NCBI GenBank assembly: GCA_903892515.1
Contig: CAITIS010000001.1
Span: 13,552 to 77,551, forward strand
DNA length: 64,000 nt
Direction of reading: 5' to 3'
Source: an uncultured Planctomycetota bacterium
Lineage (GTDB): Bacteria > Planctomycetota > Phycisphaerae > SM23-33
The position numbers were made by a program, and so were the translations under genes. The notes under the pieces were generated by a model, which was given only the letters and a program-made list of their open reading frames with translations, was not told the origin of the DNA and searched no databases. Shown one piece after another: positions 5,566-51,178 of this stretch (the stretch's first letter is position 1; the number at the start of each line of letters is the position of its first letter).

Positions 5566-6786
5566 TCATAGTTCGCTACCTCGATTCTCTCTGGCGTAGC
5601 TTCGCCACGCCGGCTGGTTCATCCGCAGGCTCGTCCCGCGATCGTCGGCCGGGGCGGTGGCATCGCCCAGTTCCACCTTCAGTGACAGCAGCTTGAGCAG
5701 ATCCTTGAGCGTGATGATGCCCGCCAGCTGGTCGCCCTCGACGACCAGCAACCGGCTTATGCCCGAGCGGCTCATGCGTTCCATCGCCTCCATCGCATCG
5801 GCCTGGGCACTGATGGTATTCTCGGCTCGGGCCGGTTCCAGGATGTCCCCCACCGTGTACGTGTTCCACTGCGCTGGAAGCAGATCCTTGACCTGTTCGG
5901 CCCCCACGTAACCCAGCAGCTTGCCATCCTCGACGACCGGATACATCCTGAAATGGTGGCGATACAGGTACTCTTCCACCAGCCGCCGCACGTTCAGCAC
6001 GGGCGGGACGGTGAGGGGCTCAGAACTCATGAAGTGGGCCACGCTCTCGCCGGACAAGGCCTGACGCAGCACGATCTGCTGGTAGCTCTGCTTGGCGGCC
6101 ATCCGTAGAAACATTCCGATCAGGAAGTACCAGATGCCGCCAATCGCATCGCTGCTGATGAAACGAAACGCCCCCAGCAGCATCAGCAGCAGGCCGAAGC
6201 CCCCGCCGATCTGCGCGGCCACGCGCGTGGCCCAGCGGAGGTTGTCGCGCCAGTACCACAAGGCCGATCGCAGCACGCGCCCGCCGTCGAGCGGGAAGCC
6301 CGGAATCAGGTTAAAAGCGGCCAGGATCACGTTGATGAGCGCCAGCCACAGGCAGACGGTCGAAGCCGCGGTGGAAGCGCCGGCCACGTGGCAAATGGCC
6401 CACAATCCATAGAAAAGCCCGCCCAGAATGACGCTGCTGATGGGCCCGGCGATGGCCATCCAGAACTCAGCCTTGGCGCTAGGCGGCTCGCCGTCCATCT
6501 CCGAAACGCCACCGAAGATGAAGAGCGTAATGCCCTTCATCGTCATGCCGTGGCGGCGGGCGATGAGCGAGTGGCTCAGTTCGTGCAGCACGACCGAGAG
6601 GAAAAGCCCACAGGCCCCGATGACACCCATGGCCCAGTACACCGTCGAGGCGTGACCAGGAGCCCAGGCGGGAAAGACCGCCACCGCCAGCGACCAGGTA
6701 ATCAGCATCGCCAAGATCAACCAACTCATGTCAACCCGGATGGAAAAGCCAAAGAGCGTAAAAAGCGTGACTCGCTTGCCAAACAT
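5566..6786 (-). CDS. Site-2 protease family (peptidase M50) zinc metalloprotease with tandem CBS domains
   Basis: HELSH zinc-binding motif within a multi-TM region; C-terminal CBS pair. Confidence 0.75.
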   Translation of the reverse strand: MFGKRVTLFTLFGFSIRVDMSWLILAMLITWSLAVAVFPAWAPGHASTVYWAMGVIGACGLFLSVVLHELSHSLIARRHGMTMKGITLFIFGGVSEMDGEPPSAKAEFWMAIAGPISSVILGGLFYGLWAICHVAGASTAASTVCLWLALINVILAAFNLIPGFPLDGGRVLRSALWYWRDNLRWATRVAAQIGGGFGLLLMLLGAFRFISSDAIGGIWYFLIGMFLRMAAKQSYQQIVLRQALSGESVAHFMSSEPLTVPPVLNVRRLVEEYLYRHHFRMYPVVEDGKLLGYVGAEQVKDLLPAQWNTYTVGDILEPARAENTISAQADAMEAMERMSRSGISRLLVVEGDQLAGIITLKDLLKLLSLKVELGDATAPADDRGTSLRMNQPAWRSYARENRGSEL

Positions 6787-11137: not shown

Positions 11138-11331
11138 TATGCCGCTAGTCTAGAGTTCCGGAGGCTCCGGAGCAAGGTTTACGGCACCGGGCCCGAGGCG
11201 TGAGGCACGACCAAAGCCAATTGCGACGCAGAGAAGCAGAGGCACAGAGAAAGCATTGGGGAAAACCCGTGTTCTCTGCCCCTCTGCGTCTCTGCGTTGC
11301 CTGAGTCTCTTCTCGCTTTTCTGCGCCCGCC

Positions 11332-15499: not shown

Positions 15500-15536
15500 G
15501 GCGTAGGGCGTAGGGCGTAGGGCGTAGGGCGTAGGG
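15498..15536. repeat. Heptamer tandem array (GGGCGTA)x5
   Basis: Overlaps the nagB stop codon. Confidence 0.75.
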
Positions 15537-15697
15537 AAAAACAAGACTGGGCCACAGAGACGCAGAGGGCTCAGAGAAGACAAGATTTCAATGCGGCGCG
15601 TGTGCAACTGGTTGTACGCGCGCCGGATGGTTGTGTACCACGACAGTCCGTAGGCTGGGCCGAGGAATTCTTTCCGAGGCCCACCTTCGGCGTCCCG

Positions 15698-15741
15698 GCT
15701 TCCCGCTTCCCGATTCCCGCTTCCCGATTCCCGCTTCCCGT
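15698..15741. repeat. Heptamer tandem array (TTCCCGN)x6
   Basis: CTTCCCGCTTCCCGATTCCCGCTTCCCGATTCCCGCTTCCCG. Confidence 0.75.
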
Positions 15742-23120: not shown

Positions 23121-23245
23121 CAATCGAGACATCGTCAATGAAATCCGCACAGACAATCCGCAGATTCCGATCCGCAGATTCCGCAGATTCCGCAGATTTC
23201 GCAGATGCAGGTCGGAATCGAGACACCTTTGACGAAATCCGCGCA
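23121..23245. repeat. 9-mer tandem array (CCGCAGATT)x5 flanked by a 30-bp imperfect direct repeat (AATCGAGACAYC...GAAATCCGCRCA)
   Basis: Lies between the htrA start and the YfhO-like stop. Confidence 0.7.
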
Positions 23246-26300: not shown

Positions 26301-26381
26301 CGTGGGATCGGTCCACAGCGGGTACAGCATTCCCGCCGGCAGCAGGACGAGCAACAGAATGGTTAGCCAAGGGCGTGGCAT
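23316..26381 (-). CDS. YfhO-family large polytopic membrane protein (GT-C-like) carrying in-frame copies of two genome repeat families
   Basis: About 14 N-terminal TM helices, a large extracytoplasmic C-domain and a terminal TM; internal repeats TTAEGGCATKEQK x2 and GSGNRES x4 are encoded by the REP and TTCCCGN repeats. Confidence 0.55.
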   Translation of the reverse strand: MPRPWLTILLLVLLPAGMLYPLWTDPTSAGEDDVVFFYPVRVLTADALRQGHLPLWNPFSATGTSLMADPQSSVFFPPNWLFVALPAKLAYSLCLFLAFGTAGVGAFVYLRRLGLRDEAGAFGAIVFMFCGFMVGHRVHLGVIQTAGLLPWALLGIELMRPKSVAAVTTLLHTPQQWHPNQRAQWHAGVRRGLAVLAGAMALALAAGHWPTVIQMSLPIGVYLLVRGRPLKFAIPAALAAGVLAGLLMASQIYVTMLGMQATFRAGLAYSTAIENSFFPLSTVLALFPFLLGNRDPNFFSQKWWGPWHQCEMLGYVGLITLILAAAAVLALYRRRQEQQAGPLGPLVRLWVWLGAGAFVWMLGGYLPTYRLMYWLPVLGKVRCPARMVLTLDLALAALSAIGMHWWLIRRDEAWKLTLSKVCIFLAGVMCLLSLGLLMAARTGRLEAMAPVLNVPHSVAQSVQQALEWKSPAFYVPVALLALTVIALGRATGVSPAEKTTAEGGCATKEQKTTAEGGCATKEPDSTSPGATAAESAAVRDSTPANAAGVAPIVSVPGRSDRRLLILLPLLLLDLFILCRFVDVPPPDKRIDPEVSPAAAWLAQHAAGQPFRVWGLSRDYHHRPAELLLPNCSALFGIASISYYGPLQPLEHARMFGFEPWGENCFWQWLIRDNRLLSLFDVRYVLAADPVYRQVIESAQWPLAQPGANLLPAVGEITLQASAANNADVKTWPVTLEDGLYRIDMDIRAPHGADNVFIGGWRPGLGQAWWREFQSRIRLSAEQLTPTWRHVGQLFMGAKEAGLFLLATTSRGAVEIRNVQLREIPAGSGNLESGSGNRESGIGNRESGSGNDMSVGAAASQPGAVATASSGHAGPSAIYHDLTPDGLPAIHSDDLPVHIYENLRVQGPHWRPERVTVEPDSATAMERLRWDEAIDLRRDVLAAAPAEGEFWAQAAPSPKLVSGKTGVKADLLGLVASQPPEPLAASTVVVGLVYVQAAALLTLIAVGLWPKVRRDTRDTQDR
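23832..23909. repeat. TTCCCGN heptamer array (about 11 units) inside the YfhO-like CDS, in frame (encodes GSGNRES repeats)
   Basis: Same repeat family as 15698-15741 and 28441-28516. Confidence 0.75.
24815..24893. repeat. Two tandem REP-like hairpin units (TTCTTTCGTAGCACAGCCGCCCTCGGCTGTGGTCTTTTG) inside the YfhO-like CDS, in frame
   Basis: Identical 40-mer units also occur at 46141-46215. Confidence 0.75.
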
Positions 26382-26387
26382 GGTGGT

Positions 26388-26468
26388 TCGTGAATCCGTT
26401 TACTCGTGAATTCGTTGATCCGTTAATTCGTTAATTCGTTAACTCGTGAATCCGTTGAATTCGCTCAT
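26388..26468. repeat. Degenerate tandem repeats of CGTGAATCCGTT / AATTCGTTA upstream of the YfhO-like gene
   Basis: GGTTCGTGAATCCGTTTACTCGTGAATTCGTTGATCCGTTAATTCGTTAATTCGTTAACTCGTGAATCCGTTGAATTCG. Confidence 0.6.
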
Positions 26469-26536
26469 CTGTCCGCTTCTTATCTTCTCCGTCTTCCTCT
26501 GCGTCTCTGCGGCCAAGGTCTTCTGCATCTTCGGTG

Positions 26537-32996: not shown

Positions 32997-33668
32997 GTGA
33001 GTGAACTGGCCAAACAGATCGACGTGCTGCTGCGGCGGCTCAATGCCCTGGGTTTGCGCGTGGAACAGGCCGCGCAGGACGCGCTGGAGGCGACGCGCCG
33101 GCTGGACGTTGACGCCGGCAAGGCCGTGGACGAGCGCGACGCCGAGGTCGACCGCGAGGAAGTCGCCATCGAGCAGGAGTGCATCCGCCAGTTGGCGCTG
33201 TACCAGCCGGCGGCCATCGACCTGCGCACGATCTGCACGATCATCAAGGTCAACAGCGACCTGGAACGGATCGCCGACTTGGCCAGCGGCATCGGCCGGC
33301 GGGTCAAGCGAATGGTTGCCGAGGGGGCCAGCGTCGGCGGCGACGCCGATTTCAACGAAGTGGCCGGCATCACGCTGGAACTGCTCAAAAAGACCATCGA
33401 CAGCCTGGTGGACCCGCAAATCGACCTGGCCCGCGAGGTGATGGAATCCGACAAGCAGATCAACCAGGCGTACAAGCGTTTCGTCCGCGGCGTGCCGGAA
33501 CGCGAACGAACCAAAGAAGGCGGGGCCGACCGGGCCATCACGCTGTTCATGCTCGCCAAGACGCTCGAACGCATCGGCGACCACTGCACCAACATCGCCG
33601 AAGACATCATCTTCTGGCGCACCGGCGAGATCGTCCGACATCTGCGGACGACCACTGAGCAACGCTGA
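32997..33668 (+). CDS. phoU: PhoU phosphate-signalling accessory protein
   Basis: Two PhoU repeats with the conserved DLRTI...LERIADLA and LERIGDHCTNIAE. Confidence 0.75.
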   Translation: MSELAKQIDVLLRRLNALGLRVEQAAQDALEATRRLDVDAGKAVDERDAEVDREEVAIEQECIRQLALYQPAAIDLRTICTIIKVNSDLERIADLASGIGRRVKRMVAEGASVGGDADFNEVAGITLELLKKTIDSLVDPQIDLAREVMESDKQINQAYKRFVRGVPERERTKEGGADRAITLFMLAKTLERIGDHCTNIAEDIIFWRTGEIVRHLRTTTEQR

Positions 33669-33683
33669 GAGGTCCTGAAGTTT

Positions 33684-33905
33684 CCTCAGCCCGAAGGGCT
33701 GCCAGAGTACAGCCCAGGGCAAAGCGAAGCGCCGCCCTGGGTATACATCAACATATACAAATTAGCCCTGAAAGGGCGGCAAGATTGTCGCGCCCCTTCA
33801 GGGCTGAATACGTACGGCCCGTACCCAGGGCGGCGCTGTCGCTTGCCCTGGGCTGTATTCTCTGAGCCTTTCAGGCTGGCGCAAGACCGCATCTTCGGCC
33901 CTTGG
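33684..33905. repeat. ~220-bp palindromic multi-hairpin element, copy 1
   Basis: Its first ~60 bp are the reverse complement of its last ~60 bp; three GC hairpins; homologous to 36120-36318. Confidence 0.6.
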
Positions 33906-33967
33906 CGGTGGCCTATCAGCATCGCTTCCGACTCTGCGCTCTCTGCGGCTCTGCGGCTGAACTCTCG

Positions 33968-35833
33968 CTACACCTTCGCGGCCTCTTTGGCCAATTGGCC
34001 CACTGACCGAGCCATGGTGGCCGGTGTGGCGGCGCTGGGGTCGGCGTAGTTGCGTTCGTAGTAGGTCGGCGGCTCGTACGTCTGCCCTGCCTCCAGCCGC
34101 GCCGTTTCCTGCGTCAGCTTGCGGAAGGCATACCGACCCAGCACAGGCGCCGCCAAGCGGGCACGCCAGCCGAACGTCTTGACAAGTTCCTTCAACAGTT
34201 CGTCCAGGTGCTGGCTGACCGGCACATTGTGAGCGAACCATTTCCGCCCCGCCCACACAGCGGCCGGGAATGCGCTGCACGCGCCGTCCATCTCCCAGAC
34301 GTACCGAGCCCGCACGCGGGCCTCAGGGTGGTTGCGATGCTTGAGATACCCCTTGAGCGTCGTGCGGATCACCCGCATTACGCTGGGGCCATTGACCTGG
34401 AAGTCCTCGGTGAAGGCCTTGAGCAGGTACGCCGTCTCCTGGCCATTCTTGATGTGCGGATGGCGGAAGTTGAAACGGAACTGGCCGTGGGTGTCTTCAA
34501 ACGCGATCTCGTCGGGCCCCAGCAGCGTGCCCTGCTGCTCATGCTGGGCATACAGCGGCGTGCCGGCCACCGGCGTGTACAGCATGAACTGGTGAAAGTC
34601 CGTGTTGTGGCTGACGGCGTAACTGATGGCCGCACTCATATTCTCGGGCGTGTGGTCTTCCATGCCGATGATCGACGAGCCCAGCACGCGAATGCCGTTG
34701 TCCTGCAATTCGGCCACCAGCTTGCGCGTGTCGGTGCCGCCGAGTTTGCCGTACTGGCTATTCTCGCCCTCCAAGCCCAGCCACAGCCAACTGATCCCCA
34801 GCGAGACCAACTCGTCCATGGTGTACATGCGGATCGCATTGGCCGAGCTGAAGACGTAGAAGGCCCAGGATTTGTTGTGCTGGCGCATCAGCTCCAGCAA
34901 TTCCATGGCCCTGGTGCGTTGCAGCAGGAAGTTTTCGTCCATCACAAAGAAGGCGTGGATCTTCATCGTGTCTTCGAGTTGGCACATGACCTCGAAAAGG
35001 TCCTTGGCCTTGGGGAAGAAGCTGACGAACTTGCCCTTGCCTCCGAACATGGCCGAGGTGGAGCAGAAGTTGCAGCCAATGGGGCAGCCTACCGACGGCA
35101 GCAGTGCGGCCGAACTCTTCTGGGCGGCCTCGGTGAACGGGATACCCATGGTTCGCTGGTCAATGCCCGACAGCACGGCGGGGTGGCGAATCGGCTGATT
35201 GGCATCTTCGCCCAAATACTCGCGGAACCAACGCACGCCCTCGCCGCGGACGATGTGATCGGCGTCCACGCGCTGGGCCAAGTCCGGCTGGCCGGTAATG
35301 TGGCCGCCGACGATGATCTTGGCCTTGGGCAGGTGCAGCCGGATCAGCTCGCACATCTTGGCGACCTTGGGCAGGTTCGGCAGGATGCCACTGACGCCGA
35401 CGATGTCGTAGTCGTTGTCACGCAGTTCAGCGATGAAGCGCTCCAGCGTGGGGAAGTCCAGCACGGTGCAGCGGGCCTGGATGTTGGCCTGGATGAGCAT
35501 CAGCCCCCAACTGCGGTGGAACATCCGCATGGAGAACGCGCCCTGCATGCGCGTGACCTGGTTGTGCCAGAGTTCCATGGGGTTGATGCGCCGGCTGCCG
35601 TATTCGTCGTCCTGGGCGTATGGCCCAAAGACGCTGCACAGCAGCACCTTGGCCTTGCCGCCCAGCGGGTGCTTGGGTTGAATCTGGATCGGTGTGCGGG
35701 TGGGAACAAAACCTGAAACGGTTGTGTGAGAGATATCGGCGACTGACAAACAGCACCTTCGATGCACTCTTGAGGAGGGTTCATACCAGCGGGACCAACC
35801 CGCATGCCTGAGAGAAGGCGGAAACTCTAACAC
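33968..35833 (-). CDS. B12-binding domain radical SAM protein (class B rSAM)
   Basis: CxxxCxxC cluster (GCPIGCNFCS) after an N-terminal cobalamin-binding Rossmann-like domain (KVLLCSVFGPY...GGHITG); start uncertain. Confidence 0.55.
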   Translation of the reverse strand: MLEFPPSLRHAGWSRWYEPSSRVHRRCCLSVADISHTTVSGFVPTRTPIQIQPKHPLGGKAKVLLCSVFGPYAQDDEYGSRRINPMELWHNQVTRMQGAFSMRMFHRSWGLMLIQANIQARCTVLDFPTLERFIAELRDNDYDIVGVSGILPNLPKVAKMCELIRLHLPKAKIIVGGHITGQPDLAQRVDADHIVRGEGVRWFREYLGEDANQPIRHPAVLSGIDQRTMGIPFTEAAQKSSAALLPSVGCPIGCNFCSTSAMFGGKGKFVSFFPKAKDLFEVMCQLEDTMKIHAFFVMDENFLLQRTRAMELLELMRQHNKSWAFYVFSSANAIRMYTMDELVSLGISWLWLGLEGENSQYGKLGGTDTRKLVAELQDNGIRVLGSSIIGMEDHTPENMSAAISYAVSHNTDFHQFMLYTPVAGTPLYAQHEQQGTLLGPDEIAFEDTHGQFRFNFRHPHIKNGQETAYLLKAFTEDFQVNGPSVMRVIRTTLKGYLKHRNHPEARVRARYVWEMDGACSAFPAAVWAGRKWFAHNVPVSQHLDELLKELVKTFGWRARLAAPVLGRYAFRKLTQETARLEAGQTYEPPTYYERNYADPSAATPATMARSVGQLAKEAAKV

Positions 35834-36119
35834 CGCTCACGAGTGCAACAGGTGAGGATGCCCGGCTCGCGTGCCACTTTCGGCCACGACTCTCCAGGCG
35901 CAATTATGCCAGATAGGAGGCAGCTTCGCCAAGCCTATCTACTACTACGCATAGATCGTAGGATCGGCTATTTGGAACCGCTAGCAAAAGGAATTCCGGG
36001 AGCCGCCGGAGAGCTTCACAGACCCGGCCGCGTAAACAGTGCAGCCCAAAGAACTAACGCATGAGAATGAATTTGGCGGCAGACACGGTTATTCCAGACG
36101 GAGGCGTTTGCACAGCTTT

Positions 36120-36318
36120 GGCCACGCAGCCCGGAGGGCTGAGAGAATACAGCCTGGGGCAACGCCCCAGGTGAGGTGCCTCACACAGCCAAGCCCTGCA
36201 CGGGCGCGAGAGGCAAAGCTCTCCCGCTCTTGCAGGGCTGAATCGTCGCACCCCGCCAACCCAGGGCGGCGCTTCGCTCTGCCCTGGGCTGGACTCTTCA
36301 AGCCCTTCGGGCTGAAGG
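36120..36318. repeat. ~200-bp palindromic multi-hairpin element, copy 2
   Basis: Alignable to 33780-33905 (for example ACCCAGGGCGGCGCTTCGCTCTGCCCTGGGCTG); same orientation as copy 1. Confidence 0.6.
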
Positions 36319-36495
36319 AACACGGAGCAAGACGCTTCATACAAAAGCCTCCGCCGCCTCCGGCTCTGGCTCCGCCTCTGCCCTCTGCCTCCGCCTCTGC
36401 GGCTCGGCGGCCCACTTCTTCGCGCCGCCGCTTCCTTCCTGACCTGCTCTTGTTGTAGAATCTTCCGTTTCCAGCCAGATGAGAAAGAGCCAAGG

Positions 36496-39378
36496 ATGAT
36501 GCATCGGATTGAAGTTCGGTTGCGTTCGGAGTTGCCCGACCCCCAAGCCCAGGCCGTGCTGCTGCAGGTGGCAGAGCTGGGCATACATAGTGCGCGCGAA
36601 GTGCAGACCGCCCGGCTGTTCTTCCTGGCCGGCGAGCTGAGTGAGGCCGACCTCGACCGCGTGGCCCGCGAGCTGCTGGCCGACCCGGTCACCGAGACGT
36701 ACAGCCTCGCCGACGACGATGGCCAGGGCGAGGGCAAGGTCATCGAGGTGCACCTGAAGGCCGGCGTGATGGACCCGGTGGCGGCATCGACGCTCAAGGC
36801 CATTTGCGACATGGGCTTTGCCGTTGCAGCCGTCCGCACCGCCCGGCGGTACGAGTTCCACGGCCAGGTCGGCCAGGACCAACTGGCCACCATCGCCCGG
36901 AGGCTGCTGGCCAACGATTGCATCGAGGACGCCCACTTCGCCGCGTACACGCCGCCTGAATCGCACGCGGGCCAGTACCAGCTCGTGGTCCACGAGATCG
37001 CCATCCGCCAGCTTGACGACGCGGCTCTGGAGAAGCTCAGCAGCGATCGCGACCTGTTCCTCAACCTCACCGAGATGCGGACCATCCAGGAGCACTATCG
37101 CAAGCTGGGGCGCGAGCCGCGCGACGTGGAGATCGAGACCTTCGCCCAGACCTGGAGCGAGCACTGCGGCCACAAGACCTTCCGCTCCGACGTGTCGGTC
37201 CGCGACGAACGCGGCCGGCAGGTCGAGGAGATTCCCAACCTCATCAAGAGCACCATCTTTGCGGCCACGCAGAAACTGAACAAGCCCTGGTGCATCAGCG
37301 TGTTCAAGGACAACGCCGGCGTCATCGAGTTCGACGAGCAAAACGCCGTGTGCTTCAAGGTCGAGACGCACAACCACCCCAGCGCGCTGGACCCTTACGG
37401 CGGAGCGGGCACGGGCATCGGCGGGGTCATTCGCGACCCCATGGGCACGGGCATGGGCGCCTTTCCCGTGGCCAATACCGACATTTTCTGCTTTGGCCCG
37501 GCAGACCTGCCGATGGAGCAGCTGCCCAAGGGCGTGCTGCATCCGCGGCGAATCATGCGCGGCGTGGTGGCGGGCGTGCGCGATTATGGCAATCGCATGG
37601 GCATCCCCACGGTCAACGGCGCGGTGTACTTCGACGAAAAGTACGTCGGCAACCCGCTGGTCTTCTGCGGCACGGTGGGCGTGCTGCCGCGGAGCATGTG
37701 CTTTAAGGAAGTAAAGCAGGGCGACGCCATCGTGGTCGTGGGCGGCAGGACTGGCCGCGACGGCATCCACGGCGCGACCTTCTCATCCGGCGAGCTGACG
37801 CACGAGCACGAGACGGAATTCTCCGGCGCGGTGCAGATCGGCAACGCCATCACCGAAAAGAAGACGCTCGACACGATCATCCAGACGCGCGATTCGGGGC
37901 TGTACAACGCCATCACCGACTGCGGCGCGGGCGGCCTGTCCAGCGCCGTCGGCGAGATGGGCGAGGAGATCGGCGCCGAGGTGCATCTGGATCGCGTGCC
38001 GCTCAAGTACGCCGGGCTGAGCTATTGGGAAATCTGGGAATCCGAGGCGCAGGAGCGGATGGTCCTGGCCGTACCGCAGGAAAAGGTGCAGGAAATACTG
38101 CGCGTATTCGCCTCCGAGGACGTCGAGGCCACCGTCATCGGCCACTTCGGCACGCCCGAAAAGCAGCTGCGGCTCTTCTACACCGGCACGCTGGTGGGTG
38201 AGATCGACATGCGTTTCCTGCACGACGGCCTGCCCCGGCCAACCAAGGACGCCCTGTGGCAGAAACCCGAGCGGAAGAGCCCGACCGTCCGGGCCGTGCG
38301 CAACTACACCAAGATGCTGCTGAAGGTGCTGGGCTCACCTAACGTCGCCAGCAAGGAATGGATCATTCGCCAGTACGATCACGAGGTGCAGGGCGGCAGC
38401 GTCATCAAGCCGCTCATCGGCGTGACGGGCGATGGCCCCTCCGACGCGGCCGTGCTGCGACCCATCCTGTCCAGCCGGCGTGCCGTCGTGCTGGCGTGCG
38501 GCATGAACCCGCGATTGGGAGACCTGGACCCGTACCAGTCGGCCCTGCACGCCATCGACGAGGCGCTGCGGAATATCGTCTGCGTCGGCGGCGATCTTTC
38601 ACGCACGGCCATTCTGGACAACTTCTGCTGGGGCAACTGCAACAAACCCGACCGCATGGGCTCGCTGGTGCAGGCGGCCAAGGCATGCTACGACGGCGCC
38701 CTGGCGTACGGCACGCCGTTCATCTCGGGCAAGGACTCGCTCAACAACGAATTCCAGACCGAAACCGGCCAGACCATCGCCATCCCGCCGACGCTGTTGA
38801 TCTCGGCCATCAGCGTGATCGCCGACGCGGGCAAGTGCGTCTCGGCCGATCTGAAGCAGGCCGGCAACGTGGTCTTCGTGCTGGGCACCACCACGGCCCA
38901 CCTGGGCGGCAGCCACTTCCTGCTGGCATCGGGCAAGGAAACCGGCACGGACGTCCCGCCGGTCGATACGGTCGGTTCGCGGCGGATCATGGAAGCCGTG
39001 CAGCACGCCATCGCTGATGGGCTGGTGCGGAGTTGTCACGATCTGTCCGAGGGCGGCCTGGCGGTCGCGGCGGCAGAGATGGCGTTTTCGGGTGGGCTGG
39101 GGCTGAGCCTGGAAATCAGCGAAATGCCCGCCACCGGCAAGGTACCCGCACAGGCTCGGCTGTTCGCCGAGAACGCCGGGCGATTCCTCGTCGAGGTGTC
39201 TGCGGCCAAGGCGGAAGAGTTTGCCGCCCGCATGGAAGACCTGGCCTGCGGCCAAGTGGGCAAAGTGACCGACACCGGCCGGCTGTTCATCACGGCCCAG
39301 GGCGATGCGGTGGTCGATGTGGAAATCGCCAAGGCCAAGGCGGCTTGGAAGGGTTCTTTGAACCACAAAGAGCACTAA
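36496..39378 (+). CDS. purL: Phosphoribosylformylglycinamidine synthase subunit PurL with N-terminal PurS-like domain (PurS-PurL fusion)
   Basis: PurL motifs (THNHPSALDPYGGAGTGIGGVIRD); N-terminal ~90 aa resemble PurS; the C-terminal codons are formed by the downstream repeat. Confidence 0.9.
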   Translation: MMHRIEVRLRSELPDPQAQAVLLQVAELGIHSAREVQTARLFFLAGELSEADLDRVARELLADPVTETYSLADDDGQGEGKVIEVHLKAGVMDPVAASTLKAICDMGFAVAAVRTARRYEFHGQVGQDQLATIARRLLANDCIEDAHFAAYTPPESHAGQYQLVVHEIAIRQLDDAALEKLSSDRDLFLNLTEMRTIQEHYRKLGREPRDVEIETFAQTWSEHCGHKTFRSDVSVRDERGRQVEEIPNLIKSTIFAATQKLNKPWCISVFKDNAGVIEFDEQNAVCFKVETHNHPSALDPYGGAGTGIGGVIRDPMGTGMGAFPVANTDIFCFGPADLPMEQLPKGVLHPRRIMRGVVAGVRDYGNRMGIPTVNGAVYFDEKYVGNPLVFCGTVGVLPRSMCFKEVKQGDAIVVVGGRTGRDGIHGATFSSGELTHEHETEFSGAVQIGNAITEKKTLDTIIQTRDSGLYNAITDCGAGGLSSAVGEMGEEIGAEVHLDRVPLKYAGLSYWEIWESEAQERMVLAVPQEKVQEILRVFASEDVEATVIGHFGTPEKQLRLFYTGTLVGEIDMRFLHDGLPRPTKDALWQKPERKSPTVRAVRNYTKMLLKVLGSPNVASKEWIIRQYDHEVQGGSVIKPLIGVTGDGPSDAAVLRPILSSRRAVVLACGMNPRLGDLDPYQSALHAIDEALRNIVCVGGDLSRTAILDNFCWGNCNKPDRMGSLVQAAKACYDGALAYGTPFISGKDSLNNEFQTETGQTIAIPPTLLISAISVIADAGKCVSADLKQAGNVVFVLGTTTAHLGGSHFLLASGKETGTDVPPVDTVGSRRIMEAVQHAIADGLVRSCHDLSEGGLAVAAAEMAFSGGLGLSLEISEMPATGKVPAQARLFAENAGRFLVEVSAAKAEEFAARMEDLACGQVGKVTDTGRLFITAQGDAVVDVEIAKAKAAWKGSLNHKEH

Positions 39379-39560
39379 GAGAAGAACCACAAAGGGCACA
39401 AAGAGAAGACTTGCACAGCAGCAAGAGAAGAACCACAAAGGGCACAAAGAGAAGACTTACACAGCGGCAAGAAGAAGAACTCAAAGGCCACAAAGAGAGA
39501 CCAGGCCAAGAATAAGCCAAGCTGCAGGGTACAACGAGAAGAACAGAGACGACACAAAGA
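39361..39560. repeat. 46-bp tandem repeat (~2.5 units) rich in CCACAAAGGGCACAAAGAG
   Basis: Starts inside the last purL codons; no unique spacers, so not CRISPR. Confidence 0.7.
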
Positions 39561-39565
39561 GACAG

Positions 39566-39970
39566 ATGTTAGAACGATCTGCCAATCCGGTGCCGATTCC
39601 CGTGGAGTTGGATCTCGCATCCAATCGGGTTATTGGCTGCGCTATCGAGGTGCATCGGCATCTTGGGCCGGGGCTGTTGGAGTCGGTCTACGAGCGAGCA
39701 TTGATACACGAACTGCACTTGCAGGGCGTTGACGCGAAACAGCAAGTGGCCGTCAGCGTTCGATACAAAGACATAACAATCCAGGGCCAGCGCATCGACC
39801 TTCTGGTTGAGCCCGGAATCATTTTGGAACTGAAGGCAGTGGACGTTCTGCTGCCGATTCACGAGGCCCAACTGCTGAGCTACCTCAAGAGTACCGGCTA
39901 TCGGCTGGGCCTCTTGATCAACTTTGGAGCTACTACCCTCAAGAGAGGCATCAAACGGCTTGTGAATTAA
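39566..39970 (+). CDS. GxxExxY-family protein (PD-(D/E)XK-like), inserted between purL and purQ
   Basis: 134 aa with GCAIEVHRHLGPGLLESVYERAL (GxxExxY motif). Confidence 0.55.
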   Translation: MLERSANPVPIPVELDLASNRVIGCAIEVHRHLGPGLLESVYERALIHELHLQGVDAKQQVAVSVRYKDITIQGQRIDLLVEPGIILELKAVDVLLPIHEAQLLSYLKSTGYRLGLLINFGATTLKRGIKRLVN

Positions 39971-40005
39971 CTTCGTGCCCTTTGTGCCCTTTGTGGTTCA
40001 AGAAG
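39969..40005. repeat. Inverted copy (CTTCGTGCCCTTTGTGCCCTTTGTGG) of the upstream CCACAAAG repeat
   Basis: Reverse complement of repeat units at 39383-39405; lies immediately after the GxxExxY stop. Confidence 0.65.
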
Positions 40006-40009
40006 ACCC

Positions 40010-40765
40010 ATGAAACCCAGAGCAATCGTTCTAAGAGCGGCCGGTGTGAACTGTGACAAGGAATCTGAGTACGCCCTTTCGTTGGCGGGCTTCGAGGCCA
40101 CGCGGGTGCATCTCTTTCGCGTGATCGAGCAGCCGGCGCTGCTTGACGACGTGCAACTGCTGATGTTTCCGGGCGGGTTCTCCTACGGCGACGACGTGGC
40201 CGCGGGCAAGATCTTCGCCAACCAGATCATTCACCGGCTGGCCGAGCCGCTCAACAAGTTCGTCGCCGACGGCAAGCTGATCCTGGGCGTGTGCAACGGC
40301 TTCCAGGTGCTGATAAAGAGCGGGCTGCTGCCATGGGGCAAGGCCGATGCCGCCAGCGCCAACCAGGACGCCACGCTGGGCTGGAACGACAGCGGCAGCT
40401 TCATCGACCGCTGGATCCGCCTGGCCAGCGACGGCGACAAGTGCGTCTTCCTGAAGCGGGGCGAATCGCTGCAACTGCCCATCGCCCACGGCGAGGGCAA
40501 GTTCCTGACGGCCAGCAAGCAGATCCTCAAGAAGCTGCGCGACGGGCAACAGATCGTCGTGCGCTACGAAGGTGACAACCCCAACGGCAGCGAAGATGAC
40601 GTGGCGGGCATCTGCGACCCCACTGGCCGCGTGTTCGGCCTGATGCCGCACCCCGAGCGCTTCGTGGACATCACGCAGCACCCCGCCTGGACGCGCGGGC
40701 AGGTGAAGCGAGCCGACGGCCTGGTGGTCTTCCAGAACGCCGCGGCGTACCTGAAGAGTTCCTAG
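40010..40765 (+). CDS. purQ: Phosphoribosylformylglycinamidine synthase subunit PurQ (glutaminase)
   Basis: Class I glutamine amidotransferase catalytic motif LGVCNGFQVL; His/Glu at the C-terminus. Confidence 0.85.
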   Translation: MKPRAIVLRAAGVNCDKESEYALSLAGFEATRVHLFRVIEQPALLDDVQLLMFPGGFSYGDDVAAGKIFANQIIHRLAEPLNKFVADGKLILGVCNGFQVLIKSGLLPWGKADAASANQDATLGWNDSGSFIDRWIRLASDGDKCVFLKRGESLQLPIAHGEGKFLTASKQILKKLRDGQQIVVRYEGDNPNGSEDDVAGICDPTGRVFGLMPHPERFVDITQHPAWTRGQVKRADGLVVFQNAAAYLKSS

Positions 40766-50911: not shown

Positions 50912-51004
50912 GTCGTGAATCCGCTCTTCGTGGATTCGTGAATTCGGCCGGTCATAACCACAAAGGCACCAAGATCACACGAAGGTCACCAAGAGATGAT
51001 TGAC

Positions 51005-51178
51005 TTCGTGCTGCTTGTGCTGTGCTGGCCCGGTGCCGTGATTTGCGCAGCAACCACGTTTGCCCTTTCCTCGCGGCCTCTGTGGCAAAAGCAGTCTGCC
51101 TCTTGCCGTTCCGTTTGTCTCTTGCCGTGCCGCCCTTTGTGCCCTTCGTGATGCCGCTCTTCGTGCCCTTTGTGGTGC
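51005..51178. repeat. Degenerate CTTCGTGCCCTTTGTG-type repeats (same family as the purL/GxxExxY flank)
   Basis: GCCGCCCTTTGTGCCCTTCGTGATGCCGCTCTTCGTGCCCTTTGTGGTG between convergent genes. Confidence 0.55.

Follow-up and report, generated by a model that had tools for sequence, protein, structure and literature searches.

Gene Order at the purSL–purQ Locus

The 64-kb stretch of contig CAITIS010000001.1 from an uncultured Planctomycetota bacterium (hereafter the window, meaning the whole stretch analysed) contains a small gene of the GxxExxY (PDDEXK_3) family, which lies between two purine biosynthesis genes and is bounded by inverted arrays of short repeats. Upstream of it is a purS–purL fusion gene (36496–39378, forward strand; 960 aa; PF02700, FGAR-AT linker and AIRS/AIRS_C domains; TIGR01736, 3e-187) and downstream of it is purQ (40010–40765, forward strand; 251 aa; PF13507, 4e-74). 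The 134-aa open reading frame (ORF) between them (39566–39970, forward strand) matches PF13366 (6e-41; 139.9 bits, cut-off 22) and TIGR04256 (1e-41; 141.6 bits, cut-off 35), confirming the identification made in an earlier note on this sequence. The accompanying statement that purL and purQ are normally adjacent fails in this clade, where a gene separates the two at all nine loci examined.

Residues 19–133 of the GxxExxY protein cover the whole profile. Its G36-x-x-E39-x-x-Y42 motif, together with D78, E88-x-K90 and Q102xxxY106, is invariant or nearly so in alignments of 15 and 61 sequences, and its AF2 model (pLDDT 93) has a restriction-endonuclease-like alpha/beta fold. On the strength of this model, the protein is confidently predicted to be a minimal Cas4/RecB-type PD-(D/E)XK nuclease core with an intact active site. 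GxxExxY proteins differ from Cas4 and RecB-family nucleases in being only ~125–135 aa long; the N-terminal helix and Fe-S cluster cysteines of Cas4 are absent here, and the gene has no CRISPR or helicase context. PADLOC returned only a weak Cas4b match (0.007), and neither a PDB sequence search nor PHROGs gave a match to the protein. No other GxxExxY paralogue was found in the window by tblastn. Proteins of ~250–295 aa with two GxxExxY domains in tandem, i.e., fused dimers, are among the best representatives of the family (P0241, P0243–P0249).

Repeat Arms on Both Sides of the Gene

The repeats follow a 9-nt plan, in which a C-R-C-R-R-A-G unit is joined to a 2-nt purine spacer; the unit logo reads C-A/g-C-R-R-A-G plus RR and is essentially T-free. 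The 5′ arm (A) is present in two identical copies of two units each, GAACCACAAAGGGCACAAAG (39384–39403 and 39430–39449, forward strand), both of them 100% complementary over 20 nt to CTTTGTGCCCTTTGTGGTTC at 39980–39999. The latter belongs to the 3′ arm (A′; 39971–40001, forward strand), which consists of three inverted units and an outer flank, CTTCGTGCC CTTTGTGCC CTTTGTGG TTCAA. A degenerate outermost 5′ copy, TTGAACCACAAAGAGCACTAAG (39358–39379, forward strand), overlaps the purL stop codon and extends the inverted repeat, pairing with 39980–40001 over 22 nt at 91% complementarity. A third, also degenerate copy, GAACTCAAAGGCCACAAAGAGA, lies at 39476–39498 (forward strand), and a lone CACAAAG unit (39553–39559, forward strand) is situated 6 nt 5′ of the GxxExxY ATG. 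Allowing up to three mismatches, the 17-mer core of the repeat is found at eight places in the window, the expectation from shuffles being 0.17.

Arm and spacer are duplicated together as a 46-bp tandem repeat (39377–39498, forward strand; Tandem Repeats Finder: period 46, 2.7 copies, 92% matches). This repeat before the gene and the perfect inverted match after it had been pointed out in the earlier note and are both borne out, with the degenerate copy at 39358–39379 being the part that overlaps the last purL codons. The gap of 5 nt given there between the inverted copy and the purQ ATG needs correction: CTTTGTGCCCTTTGTGG ends at 39996, leaving 13 nt, or 8 nt with the arm extended to 40001.

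The outermost 5′ copy encodes the last ~7 codons of the PurS–PurL fusion (SLNHKEH*). The PurL C-terminus in the window reads ...AAWKGSLNHKEH, against ...AWQxTF(D/N)W in all eight relatives; the arm duplication has overwritten the last purL codons and remodelled the PurL end. Several ENA metagenome contigs encode exactly the same GxxExxY protein, and their DNA is identical over the region apart from the number of 46-bp units. One of them (L004) has one unit fewer, and the correspondingly shorter purL-to-GxxExxY spacing is also seen in an unsequenced contig. A difference in unit number between near-identical contigs marks the tandem repeat as a live copy-number polymorphism; it arose recently, when slippage duplicated the 5′ arm.

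Neither a promoter of its own nor an intrinsic terminator was detected within the cassette above shuffle expectation, and no T-run terminators were detected. The tRNA scan found none. Rfam has no family in the whole window at the gathering threshold and none in 39300–40060 at E up to 10, and no transposase family in the Pfam and NCBIfam profiles matches the GxxExxY locus of the window.

Age and Descent of the Cassette

GxxExxY homologues were searched for in a collection of 5.8 billion proteins, and the five closest with usable contigs were placed (P0122, 74% identity; P0124, 71%; P0162, 70%; P0125, 69%; P0185, 65%). All five occupy the purSL–purQ slot in other Phycisphaerae; beyond pgi–purSL and purQ, their gene neighbours differ. 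Identities amount to 60–72% for GxxExxY, 60–69% for PurQ and 66–69% for PurL. The PurQ and PurL trees both contain two clades, one comprising the window and L005–L007, the other L129, L132, L215, L217 and L218, and the GxxExxY gene is present in the window and in every member of the second clade.

PurQ homologues, the nearest of them 77% identical, mark the source of the window as a metagenome-assembled genome of the Phycisphaerae (Planctomycetota). In the three relatives that group with the window (L005, L006 and L007; PurQ 75–77% identical) the slot has other content: a GNAT acetyltransferase gene in L006 and L007 and, in L005, a 123-aa ORF together with repeat arrays of the CACGAAT type. 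In L005 (5245–5755), the purL stop is followed by the 123-aa ORF, which has no family match, and then by a repetition of the last purL codons with synonymous divergence (AAAWQGTFDW*), with CACGAAT-type inverted and tandem arrays between this duplicated purL end and purQ. The arrangement looks like an insertion carrying a replacement purL 3′ end. The simplest history is that of an ancestral cassette, later replaced in the lineage of L005–L007.

Base composition sets the gene apart from its surroundings. Its G+C content at third codon positions (GC3) is 65%, compared with 87–88% in the neighbouring genes, and the same holds for all six syntenic lineages (the window, L129, L132, L215, L217 and L218), where GC3 is 54–76% for GxxExxY and 72–95% for neighbours. 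The gap to purL and purQ is ~20–30 points in every one of them.

The earlier note had taken the gene for an apparently recent mobile insertion, with homing-endonuclease-like cleavage of empty sites and with the repeats as insertion boundaries. The discreteness of a module bounded by inverted repeats and its atypically low GC and GC3 would suit such an origin, but its closest homologues in five other lineages fill the same slot, and its divergence is comparable to that of the flanking housekeeping genes. Three close PurQ relatives do lack the gene, one of them (L005) having arrays without it as well as the duplicated purL 3′ end; nevertheless, no precise empty purL–purQ site was found among close relatives, as the near-identical contigs all carry the identical gene, with no empty allele, and L005–L007 carry other genes. 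The large size of the family (21,156 clusters at 50% identity, E up to 1e-3) and a cassette duplicated elsewhere (L163, see below) also speak for mobility, whereas none of 50,697 phage records contains a GxxExxY gene and only 8 of 72,556 plasmids do, these eight being large and non-mobilizable. Searches of Pfam, NCBIfam, PHROGs and PADLOC gave no match to homing families (LAGLIDADG, HNH, GIY-YIG, His-Cys box and known PD-(D/E)XK), so that the proposed homing-like behaviour finds neither an empty site nor a known homing-endonuclease fold. Conserved synteny largely refutes a recent insertion at this locus, and we regard this origin as improbable.

What remains of the earlier note is its discrete, repeat-bounded module, which proves to be general for the family. 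It had pictured an old, stable arrangement as conserved synteny without flanking repeats; comparison of the purL–purQ junction in relatives did give conserved synteny, but the repeats are not absent and are themselves conserved and covarying. This argues that they are maintained parts of the module and not insertion scars. Its suggestion that the family is mobile stands in part, in view of signs of duplicative spread elsewhere (L163) and of the variable content of the slot in three relatives; it does not extend to homing or to recent insertion here. Residence in the same slot in five homologues, with arms that are kept and change in step, shows that the cassette has long resided in the Phycisphaerae purSL–purQ operon and has been inherited vertically.

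Covariation of the Arms

In all six orthologues, the purL stop is followed by a purine-rich array, and the inverted copy of this array lies 5′ of the purQ ribosome-binding site. The outer flanks vary by lineage (GAACC, TTACC, TTGCC, TAACC), and each has its match in the 3′ arm of the same cassette. The two arms also mirror each other in the order of unit types: in L217 all units are CACAGAG/CTCTGTG, and in L218 both arms have CACAGAG, CACAGAG and CACAAAG. As these lineages split long ago, scars not under selection would have decayed.

The correspondence extends beyond the orthologues. Complementarity between a locus's own flanks reaches at least 20/24 in 43 of 83 loci, versus 5% of non-self pairs, with a shuffle maximum of 17. 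Covariation was evaluated in 35 cassettes with arms anchored by position only, using 500 shuffles and slid controls. Overall, 89.7% of cells pair, compared with 75.4% in shuffles (0/500), and there are 147 double-sided changes versus 59.5; in the slid controls, pairing is at most 53%. Covariation is strong at the outer flank and at unit positions 4–5.

A Stem-Bounded Cassette Common to the GxxExxY Family

The arrays are not confined to Phycisphaerae. In an independent sample of 80 metagenome loci centred on a GxxExxY gene, strict arrays occur at 5.1 per kb in the flanks of the gene against 0.22 per kb elsewhere, a 24-fold difference. The arrays have a fixed polarity: upstream of the gene, 31 of 75 loci have a sense array and 8 an antisense one; downstream, 40 of 78 loci have an antisense array and 5 a sense one. 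In 27 of 73 loci both expected arms occur, most of the remaining loci having variant units such as CGCAGAG, CGCGGAG, CGCCAAG and CAGTGAG. The upstream neighbour is co-oriented with the cassette in 46 of 54 loci. Examples from cultured isolates, with annotated GxxExxY genes, include a radA–GxxExxY–FAD-dependent protein arrangement with CACAGAG arms in Bacteroides finegoldii (L220; NZ_OY725952.1, 1480–1854) and fabD–GxxExxY–fabG in Sphingomonas parapaucimobilis (L221; NZ_CP155749.1, 1471–1899).

An exact scan for the 17-mer in one genome per species gave at least 120 matches. The matches listed come from Planctomycetota, Chloroflexota, Acidobacteriota, Bacteroidota, Verrucomicrobiota, Cyanobacteria, Spirochaetota and others, and most of them are intergenic CAC[A/G/T]AAG arrays, often followed by an inverted array. 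Within ~0.9 Mb around the matches listed, all seven GxxExxY ORFs lie within 215 nt of the 17-mer, and PDDEXK_3 is the only recurrent family among the 123 small ORFs neighbouring these matches. Other cargo inside A...A′ pairs was also considered and rejected: only GxxExxY was found there, the neighbouring ORFs being ordinary housekeeping genes.

A sceptical reading would see in the arrays generic low-complexity intergenic repeats or terminator-like hairpins that flank the gene by coincidence. Many 9-nt arrays of the window are indeed unrelated to any GxxExxY gene, and 113 of the 120 17-mer matches listed have no GxxExxY neighbour. Chance flanking, however, does not account for the enrichment and fixed polarity of the arrays around GxxExxY genes, for complementarity specific to a cassette's own arms or for the conservation of the arms in all six orthologues, and terminator-like hairpins agree poorly with the lack of detectable T-runs. 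We therefore judge this explanation to be very unlikely. The window locus belongs to a widespread kind of stem-bounded GxxExxY cassette, in which the nuclease gene lies between a purine-rich 5′ arm and an inverted 3′ arm, each with two to four units and a short locus-specific outer flank, and the arms are a hallmark of the GxxExxY family.

In the related loci, Rfam detected only an inverted pair of Acido-Lenti-1 RNA motifs on a Flavihumibacter contig from a metagenome-assembled genome (L029; 5592–5636, reverse strand, 38.3 bits; 5746–5790, forward strand, 37.3 bits; gathering score 37); the CACAAAG arrays of that contig have no relation to this pair.

Gene-Less Hairpins and a REP/RAYT-Like Alternative

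Arrays of the same unit type also occur without the gene. Between two convergent genes of the window, 50958–51178 is predicted to form one long hairpin, with sense units CACAAAG, CACCAAG and CACGAAG at 50958–50996 and inverted units at 51133–51178; it shares with the cassette the unit type only, not the ends. A closer relationship is seen in L163, where a gene-bearing (262–860) and a gene-less (2005–2335) copy of one cassette flank a dinB-like polymerase gene. Each end is ~92% identical between the two copies over ~85 nt, and the likeness stops sharply at TCACCAC...GTGGTGA. Internal subterminal hairpins are common to both copies. No direct repeat that could represent a target-site duplication lies outside the arms in the window cassette or in L163; the sequence adjoining the arms is part of the inverted repeat. 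We infer that cassettes and gene-less hairpins spread duplicatively in the past.

These observations bear most directly on the principal alternative to the reading developed in the next section, namely a DNA-level system resembling repetitive extragenic palindromes (REPs), REPINs and REP-associated tyrosine transposases (RAYTs). The GxxExxY nuclease would here recognise CRCRRAG arrays as DNA, either in single-stranded hairpins or in duplex form, and would create, spread or maintain the gene-less hairpins while itself being inherited vertically, like a domesticated RAYT. Matching of the arms would then reflect nuclease-driven gene conversion or shared recognition in place of RNA pairing. The likeness is considerable: the repeat that flanks the nuclease gene in inverted copies (39384–39449 and 39971–40001) is also dispersed in intergenic DNA (gene-less copy at 50958–51178), as it is in relatives, and the locus is conserved and vertical. 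RAYTs, too, are reportedly inherited vertically with conserved synteny.

In favour of such a system, gene-less hairpins of the same unit type accompany the gene in the same genome or contig, and the nuclease gene itself always lies inside A...A′. The gene-bearing and gene-less copies of L163 have sharp common ends. The unit vocabulary is conserved across phyla beside a highly conserved protein, unit positions covary and spacers do not, which is a binding-site-like pattern, and the predicted Cas4-like fold belongs to nucleases active on single-stranded DNA. On the other hand, this fold is PD-(D/E)XK and not that of an HUH Y1 (IS200/IS605-like) transposase, several unit types coexist per genome (CACAAAG, CGCAGAG, CGCAGAT, CGTGAAT) and may be mixed within one arm, no target-site duplications are seen, and the covariation of locus-specific outer flanks is not predicted by a recognition-site model. 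REPs further differ in being single imperfect palindromes with a GTAG head and not tandem 9-nt units, and, unlike RAYTs, the GxxExxY family is multi-copy with a unit vocabulary shared between phyla. Overall, a REP/RAYT-like system seems to us a possible explanation, although not a probable one.

Miniature inverted-repeat transposable elements and their parent insertion sequences offer another comparison. Terminal inverted repeats are common to both, and a gene-less derivative sharing the ends of a gene-bearing copy is seen in L163, whereas the cassette has no recognised transposase, no target-site duplication and a long-term orthologous residence in one slot.

The window contains further intergenic arrays of the 9-nt plan at 11227–11297, 15553–15580, 23146–23220, 26380–26510, 33650–33670 with 33932–33955, 36395–36410 and 50912–50950. 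Their units include a CGCAGAG/CTCTGCG hairpin, five copies of CGCAGATTC, CGTGAAT/CGTTAAT runs and CACTGAG. Arrays of the general pattern number 30 in the window versus 7.8 in shuffles, and none of those with other units lies beside a GxxExxY gene. A second, unrelated repeat family is represented by two ~200-nt palindromic copies, 74–89% alike (33680–33880 and 36127–36323; GCCCGAAGGGCTG...CAGCCCAGGGC...GCCCTGGGT), which flank a B12-binding radical-SAM gene (33968–35833, reverse strand); a spurious ORF of the 'ALPWAGLFKPFGL' type (36039–36458) stems from this element. One intergenic region has five tandem copies of a GTAGGGC heptamer followed by a CCCGCTTCCCGATT-type tandem repeat (15500–15540 and 15690–15740).

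Proposed Pairing of the Arms in the Operon mRNA

Both the minimum free energy and the centroid fold of 39355–40015 pair 39384–39403 with 39980–39999 around the ORF (z = −7.3), and we infer that the arms pair in the operon mRNA. The interpretation we favour, with a probability of roughly one half, is that of a cassette akin to the intervening sequences (IVSs) of rRNA: an old resident of the purine operon in which pairing of the arms at the transcript level loops out the gene. The cassette would be transcribed within the operon mRNA, and its two arms would pair into a stem of ~20–30 bp, with the nuclease ORF in the loop and the purL stop placed near the purQ ribosome-binding site. Such looping-out may be what makes a passenger gene tolerable inside an essential operon; the stem would probably also limit or time translation or processing of the nuclease gene. 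The joint change of the arms across lineages would follow from selection on pairing. An RNA-level role is preferred because a loop of 0.5 kb makes a DNA cruciform implausible and because a fixed, immobile cassette gives no reason for matched transposon ends. The repeats themselves are an obvious candidate substrate of the nuclease.

The nearest parallel on record is the 23S rRNA IVS of Coxiella burnetii, where RNase III cuts a terminal stem of 28 bp, the loop contains an ORF, and tandem heptamers of variable copy number lie upstream of that ORF (PMC4990558). The cassette resembles it as an element of ~0.4–0.6 kb with terminal inverted repeats, a predicted stem of 20–30 bp and a small ORF in the loop, with an AG-rich region of heptamer-type tandem repeats of variable copy number 5′ of the ORF, and in its vertical inheritance inside an essential transcript. 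It differs in its host, which is an mRNA operon (purSL–purQ) where it sits between protein-coding genes and not in a 23S rRNA helix, and the window contains no rRNA. RNase III excision is a documented property of the IVS and a putative one of the cassette, and the arms described here use a 9-nt vocabulary conserved across phyla. The ORF differs as well: IVS ORFs are assigned to the S23p four-helix-bundle family (PMC4990558), whereas the cassette encodes a predicted PD-(D/E)XK nuclease matching PDDEXK_3 only. The earlier note had described GxxExxY genes as known cargo of 23S rRNA IVSs. We could not verify this in the literature, where GxxExxY is found without a link to IVSs, and the statement appears to conflate the family with S23p.

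Several observations weigh against pairing of the arms in the mRNA. The 2-nt spacers do not covary (0.97/2 self versus 0.80/2 non-self), so that any helix would be broken every 7 bp. Mismatches between the arms show no sense-strand G·U excess (43 versus 43), a test that is uninformative because mismatches fall mostly in the unconstrained spacers. The gene-less hairpins in convergent intergenic regions need no operon-bypass function, and the persistently low GC3 in all six syntenic lineages is unexpected under plain vertical inheritance. Finally, concerted evolution between inverted repeats could mimic covariation. Sequestration of a Shine–Dalgarno sequence by the arm, whose units end in RAGR, was considered separately and set aside, given that the distance from arm to ATG varies between 0 and 200 nt and that separate Shine–Dalgarno sequences exist.

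Implications for the GxxExxY Family

The gene family is known, PDDEXK_3 being listed with the function 'Unknown' by Steczkiewicz et al. (2012). The cassette architecture and the repeat vocabulary are apparently undescribed; we found no description of them in Rfam or in the searchable literature. We tentatively suggest, without considering it likely, that GxxExxY genes and CRCRRAG arrays constitute an unrecognised cross-phylum nuclease-plus-repeat system, whose cassettes are kept in essential operons (purSL–purQ, fabD–fabG, radA) because folding of the arms loops them out of the transcript.

The very large and strongly conserved GxxExxY/PDDEXK_3 family is hereby given a first concrete, testable context: covarying inverted 9-nt arrays, co-directional sites in housekeeping operons and retention in the purine operon across deep Phycisphaerae lineages. 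Two questions arise from this: do the arms form an RNA stem, possibly a target of RNase III, and does the nuclease act upon the repeats? The arrays also represent a widespread class of intergenic hairpin repeats that breaks assemblies and can remodel gene ends, as at the PurL C-terminus. If the proposed system is real, a nuclease family would be tied to a vocabulary of hairpin repeats that it possibly recognises, processes or propagates, and the cassettes would be to protein-coding transcripts what intervening sequences are to rRNA, besides being a second analogue of the REP/RAYT system, one of non-HUH type.

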